NCBI GenBank assembly: GCA_964419775.1
Contig: CAYQRF010000001.1
Coordinates: forward strand, 3,985 to 67,984
Reading direction: 5' to 3'
Length of the DNA stretch: 64,000 bases
Source: an uncultured Rikenellaceae bacterium
GTDB lineage: Bacteria; Bacteroidota; Bacteroidia; Bacteroidales; VadinHA17
Position 1 is the first letter of the stretch. Each line of letters starts with the position of its first letter. The notes below the pieces were generated by a model that searched no databases, was not told the origin of the DNA, and saw nothing but the letters and a program-made list of their open reading frames with translations. Both the position numbers and the translations under genes were made by a program. Shown one piece after another: positions 2,319 to 50,862 of this stretch.

Positions 2319-4148
2319 ATGAAGATTCAGCTTAGAAGTTCAAGAACAGTAACCGGAAGGAACATGGCAGGTGCCAGGAGCCTCTGGAGGGCAAACGGGA
2401 TGAAAGAGGAACAGTTCGGAAAGCCCGTTATTGCAATTGTGAATTCCTTTTCACAGTTCGTTCCCGGGCATGTCCATCTTCACAGCATTGGCCAGACGAT
2501 AAAGAAGGAAATTGATAAGCAGGGTTTCTTTGCTGCAGAGTTCAACACAATTGCCATTGATGACGGTATTGCCATGGGCCATGAGGGAATGCTCTATTCT
2601 CTCCCATCGCGAGAACTTATAGCCGACAGCGTTGAATATGTCTGCAATGCCCATCGGGCTGATGCAATGATCTGTATAAGCAACTGTGACAAGATCACTC
2701 CCGGGATGCTTATGGCTGCCATGCGGCTCAACATCCCGGCGCTGTTTGTCTCGGGAGGCCCGATGGAAGCCGGAAACTACAGGAACAGGGATATTGATCT
2801 TATTGATGCGATGGTATCGGCAGCCGATGAATCGGTAAGCGACCGCGAACTTCGGGAAATGGAACTGGCTGCCTGTCCTACATGCGGCTCCTGTTCGGGA
2901 ATGTTCACTGCCAACTCGATGAACTGCCTTGCTGAAGCGCTCGGGATGGCATTGCCGGGAAACGGCACCGTTATTGCCACACATTCCAACAGGCTTAAGT
3001 TATTCGATAAAGCTGCAAGTCTGATTGTTGGTCTTGCAAAGAAATTTTATTACGAAGGCGATACAAGTGTTCTTCCCAGGTCGGTAGCTTCAAAGAAAGC
3101 ATTCCTCAACGCAATGTCGCTCGACATAGCCATGGGCGGGTCGACAAACACAGTGCTTCATCTGCTGGCAGTAGCACAGGAGGCCGGAGTGGATTTCACC
3201 ATGAAGGACATTGATGAACTGTCGCGCCGGATTCCCAACATATGCAAAGTGGCTCCAAGCTCTAAGTACCATGTTCAGGATGTCAACCGGGCAGGCGGTA
3301 TACTTTCGATAATGGGCGAACTGGAACGCAACAGTCTGATTGACGGTTCAGCATTACGCCTCGACTACCCCACCCTTCATGATGCAATCGCCGACTGGGA
3401 TGTTATGAGCAGTAAGATAAAACCGGAGGCATGGGATTTCTGGCTCAGTGCTCCCTCAAATAAAAGGAGCATTGAGATGGGTTCTCACAGCACCTATTAT
3501 GACAGGCCTGATGCCGACAGAGTCAATGGCTGCATAAGGAACACTGAAAATGCCTATAACAGAGATGGCGGCCTTGCGGTACTTTACGGCAACATTGCCA
3601 GGAGCGGCTGCATAGTCAAGACTGCCGGGATCGACGCCTCACTGCTTAAGTTCAGCGGCCCTGCAGTCGTCTTCGAATCGCAGGATGAAGCAGTGGAAGG
3701 AATATTGGGAGGATCCGTGAAACAGGGAGATGCAGTTGTCATCAGGTATGAAGGACCAAGGGGAGGACCGGGGATGCAGGAGATGCTCTACCCGACATCT
3801 TATCTGAAATCAAAACTGCTCGACAAGAAATGCGCCCTGATAACCGATGGCAGGTTTTCAGGAGGAACCTCCGGACTGTCGGTCGGGCACCTGTCACCCG
3901 AAGCCGCTGCCGGCGGTGAAATTGCCCTTATCCGGAACGGCGATATAATAGACATAGATGTTACGTCAAGGAAAATCAATGTCATTCTTACAGATGATGA
4001 GCTTGAGTTGAGATTCAATAATGAAAAGTCCAGAGGAGCTGATGCATTTAATCCGGCCGGAAGGAAACGTGAAGTCCCGTCTTCCCTCCGGGCCTACGCA
4101 AAAATGGTAAGTTCGGCCGACAAGGGAGCAGTCAGGATAGTAAGTTAA
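2319..4148 (+). CDS. ilvD: dihydroxy-acid dehydratase
   Basis: 609 aa. [27 protein letters not shown] and GRFSGGTSG are near-identical to recalled E. coli IlvD motifs. Confidence 0.95.
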
Positions 4149-45059: not shown

Positions 45060-47036
45060 ATGACCGGGCCCCTTTCGAGTGATCAGGCATTTATCGACAA
45101 GCTTACCAGTATAGTAATAGCCAATCTGGCTAAAGAAAACTTTGGCGTGGAAGATCTGTCAAAGCTGGCTGGGATGAGCCATGCTACAATTCATCGTAAG
45201 ATAAAATCCATAAGAAATCAGAATATAAGCAAATTCATAAGGGAGATCAGGCTGCAAAAATCAATGGAAATGCTGCAGCGGGAAGGGGGTACCATTGCCG
45301 AAGTTGCTTTCAGGTCAGGTTTCGGGAGTCCCACATATTTCATTAAATGTTTCCATGAACACTATGGCTTTTCCCCGGGAGAAGTCAGAAAAAGGAAATT
45401 CACGGAATCTCCGGACAGTCATGCTGTTGATCAGACTTATAAGCCCGCTGATAATAAAAAAAAGACATCAGTACCAAACCTGAAATCATTAACAAAGAAT
45501 ACCCGAACCAGGAACATCCTTATTGCTACATCCGGAATTTTGTCAATAATACTGGTTGTTATTTTTATAAATATTCTTCCGCAATCCCCTGAAAAATCAA
45601 TCGTCGTGCTGCCGTTCAGGAATCTCAGCAATGAACCTGAAAACCAATACTTTGCTGACGGGATACAGGAAGGTATTCTAAACCATTTGTTCAGGATCGG
45701 TGAAATGAGGGTTATTTCACGGACTTCTGCCGAATACTTCCGCGATAACCCAATGACTTCACCTGAAATCGGAAAAAAACTTAATGTTTTTTATGTTCTT
45801 GAAGGAAGTGTCCAGAGGTATGAACAGAAAGTCAGGATATTTGTACAGTTGATAAATGCCAGGCATGATCAGCATATATTTTCTGAAGAGTATGAGGGTG
45901 AATTAACGAATCTATTTGCTTATCAGAGCGATATAGCGAAAAGAGTTGCAGATGAACTTAATACGGCAATTACCGGGGAAGCCAAACGACAGATAGAAAA
46001 AATACCTACCGTTAATTCTGAAGCTTATGACTACTACCTTAAAGGCAGGTTTTTGCTTCATAAAGCCAATGATCAGCAGCGTTACGATGTCAGTAAGGAA
46101 GGGCTGATGGCCAGCCTGGAGTATTATGAGAAAGCGATTGCTGCAGACAGTAATTTTGTTGAAGCATACGCAGGTCTGGCAAATGCCTGGTATAATCTTT
46201 CCGCATGGGGCTGGTACCAGCCCTACATCGAAGGAGTGAAAAAGGCACATTATTTCTGTAACAGGGCTCTTGAAATCGATCCGGATTGTGCTGAAGCTCA
46301 TGCTGTCTTAGGTGTTTATCACATTTATCCTGAATTAAGGATCGAAGAGGGACGCAGGGAATTGAAAACCGCGCTGAAACTGAATCCAAATTTTTCAACG
46401 GCACATCAATGGTATGCACAACTGCTGATGATAACCGGACCAATTGAAGAAGCCCGTGAACATATCGACCGTGCCCTGGAGCTGGAGCCATATTTCTGGG
46501 TTATTCACAATCTCAATTCCTGGATATATTACTTTGAAGAAAAATACCAGGAAGGCATAGATGCCTGTTTAGCGGCGTCGGACCTTAATCCGGATTTCCT
46601 GACAAACAACTGGTTATTAGTTCTCCATTATGCCAAACTGGGTGAAGGTGAAAAAGCAGTGAAGGCGCTTCAGCAGCTTTTCAACCGGTATCCTTCCATC
46701 AGCCATTATGCTGCGGAGGTAAACGATGCCTTTACAGAATCGGGCATTGAAGGAATTTTCACATGGCTGATCGAACTGAATAAAAATAATCCCATTCCCA
46801 TCGAAGGTCTGAACGGACATCCCTTTTATATTTCATGGTGGTACGCTAATACAGGCAACCGTGAGGAATCAATCTACTGGCTCGAAAGGACAGTGGAAGA
46901 AAAAAATATACCCCGCCATTATTTCAATCTTATTGCCACTAATCCCGATTTCGATATCCTGCGGGATGACCCGCGCTTCCTTGCCATTATTGAAAAAGAA
47001 GGCTTCACTCCGTATCATAAAAGAAAAGCAAGATAA
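45060..47036 (+). CDS. membrane-anchored AraC-family HTH regulator with TolB-N-like and TPR sensor region
   Basis: AraC HTH (IAEVAFRSGFGSPTYFIKCFHEHYGFSPGEVRK), one TM segment (ILIATSGILSIILVVIFINIL), VLPFRNLSNEPENQYFADGIQEGI, then TPR-like repeats. Confidence 0.7.
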   Translation: MTGPLSSDQAFIDKLTSIVIANLAKENFGVEDLSKLAGMSHATIHRKIKSIRNQNISKFIREIRLQKSMEMLQREGGTIAEVAFRSGFGSPTYFIKCFHEHYGFSPGEVRKRKFTESPDSHAVDQTYKPADNKKKTSVPNLKSLTKNTRTRNILIATSGILSIILVVIFINILPQSPEKSIVVLPFRNLSNEPENQYFADGIQEGILNHLFRIGEMRVISRTSAEYFRDNPMTSPEIGKKLNVFYVLEGSVQRYEQKVRIFVQLINARHDQHIFSEEYEGELTNLFAYQSDIAKRVADELNTAITGEAKRQIEKIPTVNSEAYDYYLKGRFLLHKANDQQRYDVSKEGLMASLEYYEKAIAADSNFVEAYAGLANAWYNLSAWGWYQPYIEGVKKAHYFCNRALEIDPDCAEAHAVLGVYHIYPELRIEEGRRELKTALKLNPNFSTAHQWYAQLLMITGPIEEAREHIDRALELEPYFWVIHNLNSWIYYFEEKYQEGIDACLAASDLNPDFLTNNWLLVLHYAKLGEGEKAVKALQQLFNRYPSISHYAAEVNDAFTESGIEGIFTWLIELNKNNPIPIEGLNGHPFYISWWYANTGNREESIYWLERTVEEKNIPRHYFNLIATNPDFDILRDDPRFLAIIEKEGFTPYHKRKAR

Positions 47037-47096: not shown

Positions 47097-47150
47097 TGTC
47101 GTGCTGCCGTGCTGTCGTGCAGTAGTGAGGTCTTCAGTCTTCGTTCTCCC
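47097..47150 (+). repeat. short-period arrays (TGYCGTGC x3, then GTCTTCN-type units)
   Basis: tgtcgtgc tgccgtgc tgtcgtgc agtagtga g gtcttca gtcttcg ttctccc. Confidence 0.75.
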
Positions 47151-47248
47151 TGCAACATAATTTAAGCTTTTGACCTAATATTTAAGCTATTTGAAACATA
47201 GTTGCTATACACTGCTTCCTATTTGGACCGAACTTTATATCAGTAAGC
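47150..47248 (+). promoter_or_regulatory. conserved 99-bp leader, copy A (paralogue of 49274-49372)
   Basis: 88 of 99 identical and gap-free with copy B. Contains TTTG (47169-47172) and a small palindrome ATAG-TTG-CTAT. Confidence 0.7.
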
Positions 47249-47277
47249 TTCAGACATAATTAGCTAAACTTAAATAT

Positions 47278-48591
47278 GTGACAACGAAAACCACATTTAA
47301 AATCTCTGGATTCTGCATTTTTTTAATCTTCACCACGCTCTGTCTTACTTCCTGCAAGAAAGACCCTGTTCCTCCTGTTGTATCAACATCTGATGTTTCA
47401 GCAATCACCCAGACAGATGCAATGTCAGGCGGCATTGTAACCGGTGATGAAGGAGCTGAGGTAATTGAGAGGGGTGTGTGCTGGAACACTTCCGGGAATC
47501 CAACCGTTTCAAACTGCAAAACCTCAGATGGAACAGGTATTGGAACGTTTACCAGCATCCTCACTCAGCTGACTCCCGAAACCAAATATTATGTGAGGGC
47601 ATATGCAACAAATGAATCGGGTACCGGCTATGGGAGCCAGCAGTCGTTTAACACAAGCGAGATAATGCTTGCCACGGTGACAACAGATGATATTACATCA
47701 ATTACACAGACAACTGCAGTTTCGGGGGGTAATATAACCTCCGGCGGGGGAGCTACGATCACATCAAAAGGTGTTTGCTGGAGTACAAACCAGAATCCGA
47801 CTGTTGCAGACAGCAGAACAACGGATTATTCGGGAACCGGTATTTTCACAAGCAATTTAACAGGACTGACTGCCGGTACTCAATATTATGTTCGTGCCTA
47901 TACAACAAACAGTGCAGGAACAGCTTATGGAACTCAGAAGGACTTTACCACTGCTGCAGAGGTGAGTGCAATAGTATTCAATCCTTCTTTAACATATGGT
48001 ACTGTTTCTGATATTGAGGGGAATACATATAAAACAATTCGGATCGGAACACAAACCTGGATGGCAGAAAACCTTAAAACAACCAAATACAATGACGGAA
48101 CGGCGATACCATGTGTAACAGAAAGTACGGTCTGGAAGAATCTTATTACTCCGGGGTATTGCTGGTATAACAACGATATCGGTTTCAAGACAGTATATGG
48201 TGCTTTATATAATTGGTATGCAGCCAGTTCTGGTAAATTATGCCCGACAGGCTGGCACGTGCTTAATGAAACTGATTATATGCTTTTAGAAACCTCTGTG
48301 GGGAGTGCCGGCACAGCAGGCGGCAAAATGAAAGAAACCGGCACCTCCCATTGGCTGGAGCCTAATGCCGGTGCTGACAACGAATCTGGATTTACCGGTC
48401 TGCCCGGCGGCCGCCGGAGATATGATGCTGTATTCATCGGCATGGGAAATCTTGGATATTTCTGGTCGTCCAGTGAAGACTGTGATGCTGGCTATGCATT
48501 AATGGGAATACTTCATTATAATTCTACTCAAATTGAAGGAGCAGCCTATTCGCTGTCTAATGGCATGTCGGTCCGCTGTGTAAAGGATTAA
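47278..48591 (+). CDS. lipoprotein with two ~90-aa tandem domains and a C-terminal FISUMP (Fibrobacter succinogenes major paralogous) domain
   Basis: GTG start, lipobox LTSC, internal repeat (VCWNTSGNPTV.../VCWSTNQNPTV...), and FISUMP hallmarks QTWMAENL, YGALYNWYAA, CPTGWHV, GYFWSSSE, SVRCVKD. Confidence 0.75.
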   Translation: MTTKTTFKISGFCIFLIFTTLCLTSCKKDPVPPVVSTSDVSAITQTDAMSGGIVTGDEGAEVIERGVCWNTSGNPTVSNCKTSDGTGIGTFTSILTQLTPETKYYVRAYATNESGTGYGSQQSFNTSEIMLATVTTDDITSITQTTAVSGGNITSGGGATITSKGVCWSTNQNPTVADSRTTDYSGTGIFTSNLTGLTAGTQYYVRAYTTNSAGTAYGTQKDFTTAAEVSAIVFNPSLTYGTVSDIEGNTYKTIRIGTQTWMAENLKTTKYNDGTAIPCVTESTVWKNLITPGYCWYNNDIGFKTVYGALYNWYAASSGKLCPTGWHVLNETDYMLLETSVGSAGTAGGKMKETGTSHWLEPNAGADNESGFTGLPGGRRRYDAVFIGMGNLGYFWSSSEDCDAGYALMGILHYNSTQIEGAAYSLSNGMSVRCVKD

Positions 48592-48690: not shown

Positions 48691-48720
48691 AGAAAAGTGA
48701 AGCCAGTGCTTCACTTTTCT
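48691..48720. terminator. hairpin AGAAAAGTGAAG-CCAGTG-CTTCACTTTTCT (possible bidirectional terminator)
   Basis: Perfect 12 bp stem with A/T-rich ends. Core GTGAAG-N6-CTTCAC is shared with 50962-50987. Confidence 0.5.
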
Positions 48721-48753
48721 GTTAAAATCAGGATTGAAATATGTCAATGAATA

Positions 48754-49212
48754 GGGATTCAACCCGCTCCGGGGTTGACACCACATTGTGCCATTTACCC
48801 CGGATGGGACCGGGGTTATTGGATTTAAAGCCCTCCGGGCTTTCTTTTCTAAGCCGTCATCTTACCCCAATTGAGACCTGGATTCTTGGGTTAAGAGCCC
48901 TCCAGGCTTTCCCTTTTTGCCGTCATCTTACCACGAATGATATCAGGGTTCTTGGGTTTGAAGCCCACCGGAGCTTTCCCTTTTTGCCGTCATCTTACCC
49001 CAAATAAGACCGTGGTCATTGGCTTTGAAGCCCCCCAGGCTTTAGTTTTTATGCTGTATTTACCCCGGATGGAATCCTGATTATTGATTTTAATGCCTCC
49101 CGTAATATTATTCCCGATAATAAACCGCTGAGCGGTTTAAATCCAATAACCGCAGTTTCATCTGCGGTAAAGTAGATACCATGAATGCCAACCCCGGAGC
49201 GGGTTGAATTCC
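48754..49212. repeat. element bounded by perfect 21-bp inverted repeats containing five ~65-67-bp direct repeat units
   Basis: IR ATTCAACCCGCTCCGGGGTTG at 48757-48777 and its exact reverse complement at 49189-49209. TTACC anchors at 48795, 48862, 48928, 48995 and 49060. Units 1-4 end in a hairpin plus T tract. Confidence 0.85.
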
Positions 49213-49273
49213 AGCAATTTTAGTCCCGATTTGAGATCCGATATATTTCCTTGTTAGAATTTTCTGCAGCTTC

Positions 49274-49372
49274 CTGCAACATAATTTAAGGCTTTGACCT
49301 AATATTTAAACAAATTGAAATATAGTTGCTATATACCCCTTCCTGTTTAGACCGAACTTTATATCAGTAAGC
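49274..49372 (+). promoter_or_regulatory. conserved 99-bp leader, copy B
   Basis: See copy A. Lies 36 nt upstream of ATG 49408. Confidence 0.7.
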
Positions 49373-49407
49373 ACCAGTTAAAACAAGTTTCACTTAAATA
49401 TGCGACT

Positions 49408-50862
49408 ATGAAGACAATTAAAAACCTTTTCTTAATCGTTGGGCTTACAGGATTAATGTTTTCCTGCACCAAGTCGGATCAGCCTGATTTTGATATTTCA
49501 GGTATGTCCGCGAAGAATCTTAATAGCAATTCAATGATAAATAATGGAATTTTTATCGTTGAACCCGGCGGCATTGACGATACACCGGCCATTTGCCAGG
49601 CATTTGACGATGCCAAAGCTGCCGGTCCTGGCTCGGTGGTACAGCTCCTTGCCGGAGAATATTACCTGGGACTAATGGAAGTCCGCGATTTCTGCGGGGT
49701 CTTTAAAGGCGCAGGAAAAGGTAAAACAATCATAACTGTGTTGAATAACCTTGACCTGCAAAGTTTATGGAATAAAGGCCAGCGAGGCGATCTTGTGAAA
49801 TTTGTAGGAGGTGATGTGTGCATGAGGGACTTCACCATCCGCACTCCTGAGGGAAGGCTGTCTGTCACCGGACCTGCAAACGGGATAATCGGCAGCCTGA
49901 TTAATTTTTCAGCCTGCAACGCACAGTATGAACGCGGGAACACTGCTCGTTCAATAAACGTTGTCATTGACAATGTTTCATTCAAGGGGCAACTTCTGGA
50001 TGGAGGCTATGGTTATGTAAAAAACTACAACTGCGCAATGGGAGTAAGAGCAGGCTGGGATGAGCCATGGGGAACCGGTCTTCCCAGGGAAAAAATCAAT
50101 TTTAAAATCACCAATTCGGACTTTAGTACATTCTGCTATGGCCTGGTGCTTGAAAGTATGACGGATAGCAGGATTATTGTTGGGGAAAAGAACAGGGGGA
50201 ATATTTTCAACAACCTCGATCAGACTGGCGGAGTGTGGGAAAGCAGGAACATGGAAGTCAGCATTGAGGGAAATATTTTCAATGTTCCTGAGTTCAGCTG
50301 GGGTCTTGATCTGGATGACTATTGGCACTACGCCGGAACATTAAAAGATGAGCCACAGACTAAGGCTATGATTTTCAATATCCAGAATAATGTTTTTAAC
50401 CTGGATCATTCGGAATATGCATTCATGGTGAGAAATTTGCGCCGTCGGGATTATCCTGCCGAACCCTATGCCCTCTACCAGGTAAGAAACAACCTGTTTA
50501 CCATGTCTGACGGCTATCCATGGGCTGTCTATGGAGTCAGAACAAAAGGAATGGTAATCCGCAATAACAGATTCAGCGGGTTTGGCGATATAGCACTTGT
50601 CCTGACAACAAGTGAGAACGGCCTGATACTTGGTAACAACTTTTCAACCGCTGAATTTGCTTCGGCAGCTGTCTATCTTTACCCGACAACCAAAGACTGG
50701 ACAATCGTTGGAGGAAGTATTGCCGACCAGGTGATTGATCTGGGAACAAACAATATAATTACAGGATTTAATGTAAATAATTCCGAAGCTCCGTTTGGCC
50801 GAACCATCGTTGACAATCTCAAAACGATGAAAGAGGCCTTGCAGGAATTGAAGGACAATTAG
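49408..50862 (+). CDS. lipoprotein with right-handed parallel beta-helix repeats
   Basis: Lipobox MFSC. Periodic N-N-x-F repeats (IEGNIFN, IQNNVFN, VRNNLF, IRNNRFSG, ILGNNFS). Confidence 0.6.
   Translation: MKTIKNLFLIVGLTGLMFSCTKSDQPDFDISGMSAKNLNSNSMINNGIFIVEPGGIDDTPAICQAFDDAKAAGPGSVVQLLAGEYYLGLMEVRDFCGVFKGAGKGKTIITVLNNLDLQSLWNKGQRGDLVKFVGGDVCMRDFTIRTPEGRLSVTGPANGIIGSLINFSACNAQYERGNTARSINVVIDNVSFKGQLLDGGYGYVKNYNCAMGVRAGWDEPWGTGLPREKINFKITNSDFSTFCYGLVLESMTDSRIIVGEKNRGNIFNNLDQTGGVWESRNMEVSIEGNIFNVPEFSWGLDLDDYWHYAGTLKDEPQTKAMIFNIQNNVFNLDHSEYAFMVRNLRRRDYPAEPYALYQVRNNLFTMSDGYPWAVYGVRTKGMVIRNNRFSGFGDIALVLTTSENGLILGNNFSTAEFASAAVYLYPTTKDWTIVGGSIADQVIDLGTNNIITGFNVNNSEAPFGRTIVDNLKTMKEALQELKDN

Follow-up and report, generated by a model that had tools for sequence, protein, structure and literature searches.

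Transposases of the Y1 HUH type act on hairpins in single-stranded DNA (ssDNA), and repetitive extragenic palindromes (REPs) and bacterial interspersed mosaic elements (BIMEs) flank the transposase gene tnpA_REP in loci termed REPtrons (PMC3333891, PMC6006769, PMC3116915). In the classification of Quentin et al. (2018), subclass 1.2 of these enzymes lies close to IS200, lacks the properties of an insertion sequence (IS) and is listed as having no REPs ("REP: no"); its members have a median length of 148 aa and a HuH motif of the form DH[IV]H, come from Bacteroidetes and Cyanobacteria, and show low copy number and low intragenomic identity (PMC6006769). Genes of subclass 2.6 (group 5 of Bertels), which are mainly from Bacteroidetes, and of class 3 are bordered by secondary structures of an atypical kind that have copies elsewhere in the genome (PMC6006769), while the term TIRtrons was introduced by Di Nocera et al. 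(2013) for Y1 genes flanked by long inverted repeats belonging to repeat families (PMC3733652). Here we describe an intergenic repeat element at positions 48757-49209 of a 64,000-nucleotide stretch from an uncultured Rikenellaceae bacterium (contig CAYQRF010000001.1, forward-strand positions 3,985 to 67,984; "the window" denotes this whole 64-kb stretch). We consider it highly probable that this element is one locus of a dispersed, non-coding, hairpin-forming DNA repeat family of the Bacteroidota that is comparable to REP/BIME clusters or to REPINs (hairpin-forming doublets of REPs), its spread or maintenance being due to a Y1 transposase that acts in trans.

A convergent doublet of three-hairpin modules

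The word ATTCAACCCGCTCCGGGGTTG, hereafter the 21-mer, occurs exactly twice in the window, at 48757-48777 on the plus strand and at 49189-49209 on the minus strand, with 411 bp between the two copies. A sequence-only reading of the window had described a perfect 21-bp inverted repeat enclosing five tandem units of about 66 bp, and both the repeat and the units are real and far above chance. No match to the 21-mer was obtained in 100 shuffles, even with three mismatches tolerated, and with its flanks the inverted repeat reaches 27 nt at 93% (48754-48780 and 49186-49212). The five units start at 48793, 48860, 48926, 48993 and 49058, giving spacings of 67, 66, 67 and 65 bp; the identity of the later units with unit 1, measured over 45 nt, is 71-78%, and Tandem Repeats Finder (TRF) reported the array with a period of 67, 3.6 copies, 77% matches and a score of 252. 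A second inverted match, with 56-nt arms at 48794-48849 and 49116-49171 that are 77% complementary, shows that the minus strand of the right end forms a sixth unit, joined to the right 21-mer as unit 1 is joined to the left one.

Both ends of the element share one layout, which consists of the 21-mer hairpin (P0), approximately 17 variable nucleotides, a second hairpin preceded by TTTACC (hp1), the linker TTATTGGATTTAAA and a third hairpin (hp2). The element is a convergent doublet, in which two modules of about 95 nt, each with three hairpins and each of a different sequence type, stand tail to tail. A covariance model of the module (R1, built from 28 module copies) matched the window by cmsearch at the two terminal modules and, weakly, on units 3-4. 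The left module ("A type", 48757-48850, plus strand) scored 95.2 bits (E 1e-16) and folds as ssDNA at -21.3 kcal/mol (z -4.15). Its P0, which coincides with the plus-strand 21-mer, has the stem CAACCC/GGGTTG and the loop GCTCCG, and is followed by hp1 at 48797-48816 (ACCCCGG-ATGGGA-CCGGGGT), the linker TATTGGATTTA and hp2 at 48827-48843 (AAAGCCC-TCC-GGGCTTT), which runs into the T-tract CTTTTCT and was flagged by a scan for terminator-like sites. The right module ("B type", 49115-49209, minus strand) scored 91.4 bits (E 6e-16) and folds at -20.5 kcal/mol (z -5.32), with P0 at 49189-49209, hp1 at 49149-49168 (ACCGCAG-ATGAAA-CTGCGGT) and hp2 at 49120-49136 (AAACCGC-TCA-GCGGTTT), all on the minus strand. 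Two perfect 7-bp hairpins at 49120-49136 and 49148-49167 had been noticed before and listed as additional to the units; the hairpins stand, but the 56-nt inverted match identifies them as hp2 and hp1 of the inverted right module rather than as extras. The hp1 stems of the two modules read CCCCGG/CCGGGG on the left versus CCGCAG/CTGCGG on the right, the hp2 stems GCCC/GGGC versus CCGC/GCGG, and all four differences are compensated on the opposite arm. The right module retains perfect hairpins even though it points against its only neighbouring gene.

Between the modules lie units 2-5, all on the plus strand, in which the hp1-linker-hp2 portion of the left module has been copied in tandem and is now decaying. 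Unit 2 (48860-48925; 71% identical to unit 1; fold z -1.15) keeps an hp2-like hairpin at 48894-48910 with its T-tract, a terminator-like site, next to a degenerate hp1. Both hairpins are degenerate in unit 3 (48926-48992; 73%; z +0.71), while unit 4 (48993-49057; 73%; z -0.34) again keeps a terminator-like hp2 hairpin and T-tract at 49025-49045, and the weak R1 match (30 bits) runs over units 3 and 4 at 48958-49050. Unit 5 (49058-49114; 78% over 45 nt; z +0.43) is truncated as well as decayed, and abuts the tail of the right module. When units 2-5 are folded as ssDNA, neither strand does better than shuffles (z -1.2 to +0.8). Among the five units only unit 1 has intact hairpins, although a variable 5' hairpin had been proposed for every unit. 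The hairpin and T-tract ascribed to units 1-4 were recovered by the terminator-like scan in units 1, 2 and 4 and not in unit 3. In the whole element, terminator-like sites lie on the plus strand only, five being present where 1.2 are expected, while promoter-like sites within it are no commoner than in shuffles and no per-unit promoter was found.

A dispersed and structurally constrained repeat family

Exact matches to the 21-mer were sought in GTDB genomes, with one genome for each GTDB species, and were found in 28 stretches. The carriers are Bacteroidota and include several Rikenellaceae metagenome-assembled genomes (MAGs), Sunxiuqinia dokdonensis DH1, a Balneolaceae MAG, Candidatus Azobacteroides and the Bacteroidales MAG BF4_167, which holds six exact copies on five contigs, among others. 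A scan of metagenomes yielded 58 further stretches from gut, marine, sediment and fermentation samples, with six exact copies on one 592-kb contig, whereas the viral contigs scanned gave no match and control loci from related bacteria contained no module. In nearly all of the GTDB stretches the 21-mer is followed by the hp1-linker-hp2 architecture, with stems that differ between loci yet pair. The DNA upstream of the 21-mer is unrelated between loci, and solo modules have sharp edges on both sides. Conserved across the family are P0 with its 5' ATTCA foot, more generally (A/C)TTCA, and a linker of the form YTATTGGA-TT-AA, while the hp1 and hp2 stems vary and remain paired.

When R1 was applied to the 21-mer loci and the window, 45 modules were recovered at E<1e-5 and 60 at E<1, many with diverged 21-mers. 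The 45 modules were aligned by fitting them to the covariance model, which biases the alignment towards the modelled structure; in it, 97.4% of cells pair, and in 11 of the 17 pairs both sides have changed (102 cells). Not one of 500 shuffles reached these values, and sliding the partners by 1-3 columns reduced pairing to about 30-52%. A MAFFT alignment of 28 modules, on which no structure was imposed, had 93.9% of its cells paired, and its controls behaved alike. Among 765 cells, 736 are Watson-Crick, nine are G.T and five are A.C; such near-pure Watson-Crick pairing fits a DNA palindrome and would be unusual for an RNA family. P0 also varies with compensation in loci that were selected through the transposase described below, for example as CAACAC/GTGTTG and CACCCC/GGGGCTG. 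The invariance of the 21-mer is thus in part an artefact of searching with an exact word, although the identical 21-nt hairpin is still present in several families (Rikenellaceae, Prolixibacteraceae, Balneolaceae and Azobacteroides).

A co-oriented gene stands immediately 5' of many modules, including genes for an extracytoplasmic function (ECF) sigma factor, PBP1A, a CHU_C/PKD protein and the transposase itself. In four loci with unrelated neighbour genes (L018:7570-7800, L019:1880-2110, L020:3890-4034 and L032:7660-7900; L numbers designate the retrieved loci), the 21-mer is preceded by an additional conserved segment of about 35 nt with a small hairpin (TTATCGTTTTACGATAA). In this set of loci, to which L028:161-330, L034 and L029:1-90 also belong, short simple repeats of 7-9 nt (CTCACGC, CACGACCTG, CTCTCAC) follow the module in most of the four and in L028 and L029. 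At L025:30-51 the 21-mer overlaps the last codons and the stop of a miaA (IPP transferase) open reading frame (ORF), at which point the contig ends; this module may have replaced the end of the gene, as has been described for some REPs.

Arrangement, persistence and presumed mobility of the modules

Away from the transposase gene, modules occur solo, back-to-back (L011, L026, L029), in direct tandem (L037) and, as their most characteristic form, as convergent doublets of the kind present in the window. Doublets of the last kind were found in L016 (320 bp), L024 (271), L030 (293 and 203), L022 (354), L027 (363), L041 (463 and 583), L021 (486), L023 (506) and L042 (1089), and their halves are of different types. 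Tandem hp1-linker-hp2 arrays between or after modules have periods of 63-67 bp in the window, L016, L022, L023 and L027, and longer periods in L041, L042 and L037. The array at L037:3918-4474 consists of three entire modules, each with its 21-mer, that repeat directly every 205 bp at 99% identity, and it resembles a recent amplification of the whole module rather than of the hp1-hp2 sub-unit.

In the orthologous locus of a related species (L016, with flanks about 93-95% identical), the element stands at the corresponding position with its orientation unchanged, and has two array units fewer than in the window (a 133-134-bp indel), and in a third relative (L017) the left 21-mer stands at the same junction. 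Together these loci indicate that the element is old at this site and that its internal copy number drifts. Seven assembled metagenome contigs from different samples span the element, all in one orientation and 100% identical. Three others, independent of one another, begin inside the array, two at window position 48797 in unit 1 (L003 and L009) and one at 49075 in unit 5 (L008), which could reflect either heterogeneity of unit number in populations or assembly trouble in the repeat.

In Sunxiuqinia, modules are present downstream of the PBP1A gene of S. dokdonensis, the contigs of which end in the repeat, and are absent at PBP1A in S. rutila, S. elliptica and a third relative, a pattern that fits mobility of the module. 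At the window locus no empty site was found among the orthologs of the downstream lipoprotein gene (58-77% identity; L044-L046 and L108), which have other upstream neighbours and no module.

A Y1 transposase gene bracketed by modules

In three loci (L015, L023 and L030), an ORF matching the Pfam family Y1_Tnp (IS200-like; E 5e-14 to 7e-17) ends 5 nt before a 21-mer on the same strand, and tblastn located further copies of the gene in L036 and L038. Mapping with the covariance model revealed, in all five of these loci, a second module upstream of the gene on the opposite strand, so that the gene is bracketed by outward-facing modules of two types. The transposase adjoins the 21-mer in 17 of the 86 loci picked through the 21-mer, where divergent 21-mer pairs 526-594 bp apart correspond to the bracketed gene. 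In an independent test, homologues were picked by protein similarity alone (58-63% identity) and their contigs were examined for modules: bracketing modules were present at all five loci, which carry three distinct genes and one tandem duplicate. In these loci 45-106 nt separate the start codon from the upstream module, which is on the minus strand, and the downstream module begins 5-6 nt past the stop. Modules are more numerous than transposase genes in the loci examined. The cluster in the window had been read, among other possibilities, as REP/BIME-like, and that suggestion is borne out by the dispersal of a 21-mer-led module through many Bacteroidota and by its inverted placement around a Y1/IS200-like gene in other genomes.

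One locus (L042:2235-3453, equivalent to L043:3001-4219) contains two tandem Y1 genes 766 bp apart that encode an identical protein, each with its own flanking pair of modules, and these are followed by the 1089-bp doublet with six internal repeats of 167 bp.

At E<=1e-10 the transposase family counts at least 1984 proteins, nearly every one of them 150 aa long. In 22 proteins, W94-Q95 (GWQ), Y114, Q118, H121 and H122 (YVxNQxxHH) are invariant, as are H53 and H55 in the motif NHIH. The best NCBIfam match is IS200 (NF033573), at 37-47 bits and below the cutoff of 55. The family profile matches only IS200/IS605 TnpA structures (ISDra2, IS608 and Sulfolobus; E 2.5e-5 to 5e-4 for ISDra2 and IS608); it gave no match to E. 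coli TnpA_REP (4ER8-type), and the protein has no YIxxNP motif. By motifs, as distinct from Markov (MCL) clustering, the protein appears to belong to subclass 1.2, with which it shares Y---Q--HH (here YVxNQxxHH), the WQ motif, a length of about 150 aa versus a median of 148, occurrence in Bacteroidetes and proximity to IS200 TnpA (PMC6006769). It differs from the published description in that every gene examined here is bracketed by structured, dispersed modules, and in its HuH motif, which is NHIH versus DH[IV]H. Subclass 2.6 and class 3 resemble the present system in having flanking structures without a GTAG foot and with dispersed copies, and subclass 2.6 comes from the same phylum (PMC6006769). 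The proteins set them apart: subclass 2.6 has YIH[QN]NP and a median of 179 aa, while class 3 has Y----Q and comes from Planctomycetes and Acidobacteria.

Comparison with REP-type systems and proposed mechanism

What is observed at these loci, namely hairpin constraint, dispersal, bracketing of a Y1 gene, doublet and tandem architectures, and vertical persistence with a change of unit number at one site, has close counterparts in the REP/BIME-REPtron systems of E. coli tnpA_REP/RAYT (PMC3333891, PMC3479197, PMC8266576). Common to both are dispersed extragenic hairpin repeats, clusters in which two sequence types alternate in orientation (Y and Z in E. coli, A and B here), occasional tandem amplification, as in BIME-2, one small gene for a Y1 HUH transposase between inverted copies of the repeat, and a frequent position just after genes, where the repeats are able to terminate or stabilise transcripts. 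The present module differs from a REP in being about 95 nt long with three hairpins, versus one palindrome of 20-40 nt, in its ATTCA foot versus GT[AG]G, and in a far lower copy number in the loci seen here; the associated protein is not a class-2 RAYT, its tyrosine motif being YVxNQxxHH versus YIxxNP. With the REPINs of Pseudomonas (PMC3116915, PMC3337134) the element shares the convergent doublet of inverted units, the variable spacer between them, an association with one transposase gene for each genome, and vertical inheritance at orthologous sites, here seen in the window, L016 and L017. Unlike REPINs, the doublet has halves of different module types and, beyond the 21-mers, cannot fold into one long hairpin, and its spacer may hold tandem arrays of sub-modules.

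By analogy with IS200/IS605 TnpA and TnpA_REP, which recognise an ssDNA hairpin with a short 5' foot and cleave and rejoin DNA at replication forks, the 150-aa Y1 HUH enzyme would recognise P0 and its (A/C)TTCA foot on one strand and so spread or maintain the modules. Its own gene is, in other genomes, itself bracketed by two outward-facing modules, and the window, which contains no Y1 gene, would hold a non-autonomous copy. At the window locus, tandem amplification of the hp1-linker-hp2 part of the left module has given five units, of which four are now decaying, and the number of internal units would change by slippage or unequal recombination. Judged from the sequence, the GC-rich hairpins and T-tracts of units 1, 2 and 4, all on the plus strand, probably serve locally as back-up terminators or as a block that stabilises or insulates mRNA 3' ends, in the manner of REP/BIME clusters in enterobacteria; the cluster would thus be a redundant terminator or a protector of 3' ends. 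On this interpretation the feature in the window is ordinary in kind and does no harm where it stands: a selfish or domesticated cluster of DNA repeats that occupies an intergenic spacer and has, as a side effect, terminator or insulator activity at most.

Several points weigh against this interpretation. The copy numbers seen are modest, with a few exact 21-mers per MAG and about 10 per Mb at most, far below those of classical REPs. The hairpin loops are strand-specific and UNCG-like (TCCG or TTCG closed by C-G), which would also suit a role at the RNA level, and many family members have no T-tract after hp2. A tblastn search with the family's transposase found no Y1 transposase gene in the 64-kb window, and a cognate Y1 enzyme in the source organism is assumed. 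As no clean empty site was found, mobility is deduced from dispersal and from presence and absence, and the terminator or insulator effect is a prediction from sequence features.

Since subclass 1.2 has been listed as lacking REPs, the repeat family looks undescribed, and no paper describing the present module was found in open-access literature text. We tentatively propose, with slightly less than even confidence, that the module is the unrecognised cognate repeat of the "orphan" TnpA_Y1 subclass 1.2, and that the two form a REPtron-like, IS200-proximal domesticated system found across the Bacteroidota. If this is true, the Y1 tree has a REP-generating system among its class-1 (IS200) members, which suggests an earlier origin of REP-type domestication than assumed, or more than one origin. 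More generally, the association seen here ties an extensive group of small Y1 transposases to a defined, structured DNA repeat. The P0 hairpin with its ATTCA foot is a candidate substrate for the enzyme, for which a cultured host exists in Sunxiuqinia dokdonensis DH1, and the covariance model can be used by annotators, as the repeat interrupts assemblies of Bacteroidota and gives rise to spurious ORF calls, among them 48741-49007.

Alternative explanations

The modules could instead be the ends of ordinary autonomous IS200-type elements, in which case the window element would be a deletion derivative with two ends and no gene, akin to miniature inverted-repeat or palindrome-associated transposable elements (MITEs or PATEs). 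IS200/IS605 elements and their PATE and MITE derivatives likewise depend on a Y1 HUH transposase that recognises subterminal ssDNA hairpins, and their transposase is the closest sequence relative of the protein described here. In keeping with such an origin, the only structures matched by the transposase profile are those of IS200/IS605 TnpA, E. coli TnpA_REP not being among them, IS200 is the best NCBIfam match although below cutoff, the gene is tightly bracketed with a fixed spacing of 5-6 nt after the stop, and one locus has two identical tandem copies of the gene. We regard this explanation as unlikely, since the orientation is wrong for it: modules face outward around the gene, with the 21-mer next to the gene, and inward in doublets, with the 21-mers outermost. 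The ends of IS200/IS605 elements are not inverted copies of each other, whereas both flanks here belong to one module family. Solo modules with sharp boundaries on both sides, and an excess of modules over genes in the loci examined, also argue against it; in IS200/IS605 it is the whole IS that is multi-copy, and tandem arrays and convergent doublets are not typical. Subclass 1.2 is itself reported as low in copy number and in intragenomic identity and as not IS-like (PMC6006769).

A role as RNA was considered in the form of a structured 3' untranslated region, a tandem array of small RNAs (sRNAs) or locally selected stacked terminators, with the link to the transposase incidental. Strong covariation in three hairpins, UNCG-like loops that are always on the module strand, the position of many modules just 3' of co-oriented genes, and the resemblance of units 1, 2 and 4 to intrinsic terminators on the plus strand all favour such a role. 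Window units also recall the cyanobacterial NsiR1 array, in which tandem units of about 60 nt each end in a hairpin and T-tract; the window array differs from it in that no per-unit promoters were found and the internal units are decayed. The nine G.U cells among 765 are roughly balanced by the five A.C cells, unlike in typical RNA families; the internal units fold no better than shuffles; many copies have no T-tract after hp2; and the right module is perfectly structured without a co-oriented gene. Rfam returned no family match, neither at gathering thresholds over the whole window nor, beyond chance-level matches, at E<=10 over the region, and the back-to-back and convergent arrangements and the bracketing of an ssDNA transposase gene are hallmarks of DNA repeats. 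An RNA-level explanation of the modules and units together is accordingly quite improbable, and the earlier suggestion of tandem sRNAs with variable seed hairpins is not supported, given the unfolded internal units, the absence of an Rfam match, the near-pure Watson-Crick pairing and the perfect right module. The perfect 21-bp inverted repeat (27 bp at 93%) around 411 bp had also prompted the suggestion of an inverton, in which the 21-27-bp repeats would be recombinase sites and a flip would toggle a multi-terminator barrier between the lipoprotein genes. Invertons are common in Bacteroidota, those of Bacteroides resemble the window element in having an inverted repeat that flanks a few hundred bp, the terminator-like hairpins are polar (plus strand only), and three contigs from the Logan metagenome assemblies break inside the array. 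These breaks fall inside units 1 and 5 (48797 and 49075) and not at the inverted-repeat boundaries, and the 21-mer is the conserved part of a dispersed module that is also found solo, back-to-back and in tandem elsewhere, in a family tied to a transposase. A single orientation is present in the seven spanning contigs and in the ortholog L016, despite species-level divergence, and L017 has the same left junction. Promoter-like sites inside the element are at chance level, and no invertase was identified near the element, the ORFs of the window having been scanned for recombinases in part. With the 21-mer scattered elsewhere without paired organisation and the assembled contigs and L016 in one orientation, the inverton suggestion is not supported and is extremely unlikely.

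Other candidates were considered and rejected. A coding repeat is incompatible with the 67/66/67/65-bp spacing, which breaks the reading frame, and the peptide similarity between units comes from the conserved linker only. Arrays of the CRISPR (clustered regularly interspaced short palindromic repeat), TIGR (tandem interspaced guide RNA) and type III toxin-antitoxin RNA kinds were discarded because variation extends over the whole unit, there is no alternation of repeat and spacer, and no nuclease or toxin gene is associated. ARAGORN found no tRNA in the window, which excludes a tRNA-derived attachment site; integron attC-like sites were rejected as the bases after the hairpin are not conserved and there is no GTTRRRY core, and a phage origin was rejected as none of the viral contigs scanned contains the 21-mer.

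Neighbouring genes and leaders

The element lies between two genes whose products have lipoprotein-type signal peptides, an upstream gene for a Fib_succ_major-domain lipoprotein (47278-48591) and a downstream gene for a 484-aa lipoprotein (49408-50862). A perfect 13-bp hairpin, AGAAAAGTGAAGC/GCTTCACTTTTCT, is located 3' of the stop of the upstream gene at 48691-48720 (plus strand) and is kept in the ortholog L016. It is not followed by a T-run and lies outside the repeat element; it is probably the upstream gene's own terminator. The repeat cluster is situated between this candidate terminator and the leader of the downstream gene. That leader and promoter region (49270-49415, plus strand) is a duplicate of 47146-47291, with 82% identity over 146 nt, which confirms, together with the signal peptides, that the element sits between two lipoprotein genes with duplicated leaders, as had been noted from the sequence.

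Both 146-nt leaders contain two motifs of the AACATA(A/G)TT type, and distant orthologs of the downstream lipoprotein gene also have the leader region, in conserved form, upstream of them (L045:1950-2125 and L046:3830-4012). In L046 the ortholog directly follows a gene for an AraC-TPR regulator, and the 146-nt leader is probably an operator/promoter of the regulator at 45060-47036. The Fib_succ_major gene and the repeat cluster together resemble an insertion that duplicated the leader.

An ORF of 88 aa that runs across the units (48741-49007) was called as a gene in two Logan contigs (L004 and L005) and has no recorded Pfam match; it is almost certainly spurious. The second lipoprotein (49408-50862) has no Pfam match itself, while several homologues at about 50-60% have Pectate_lyase_3 or Beta_helix domains, and its product is probably a right-handed beta-helix surface protein that binds or degrades glycans.

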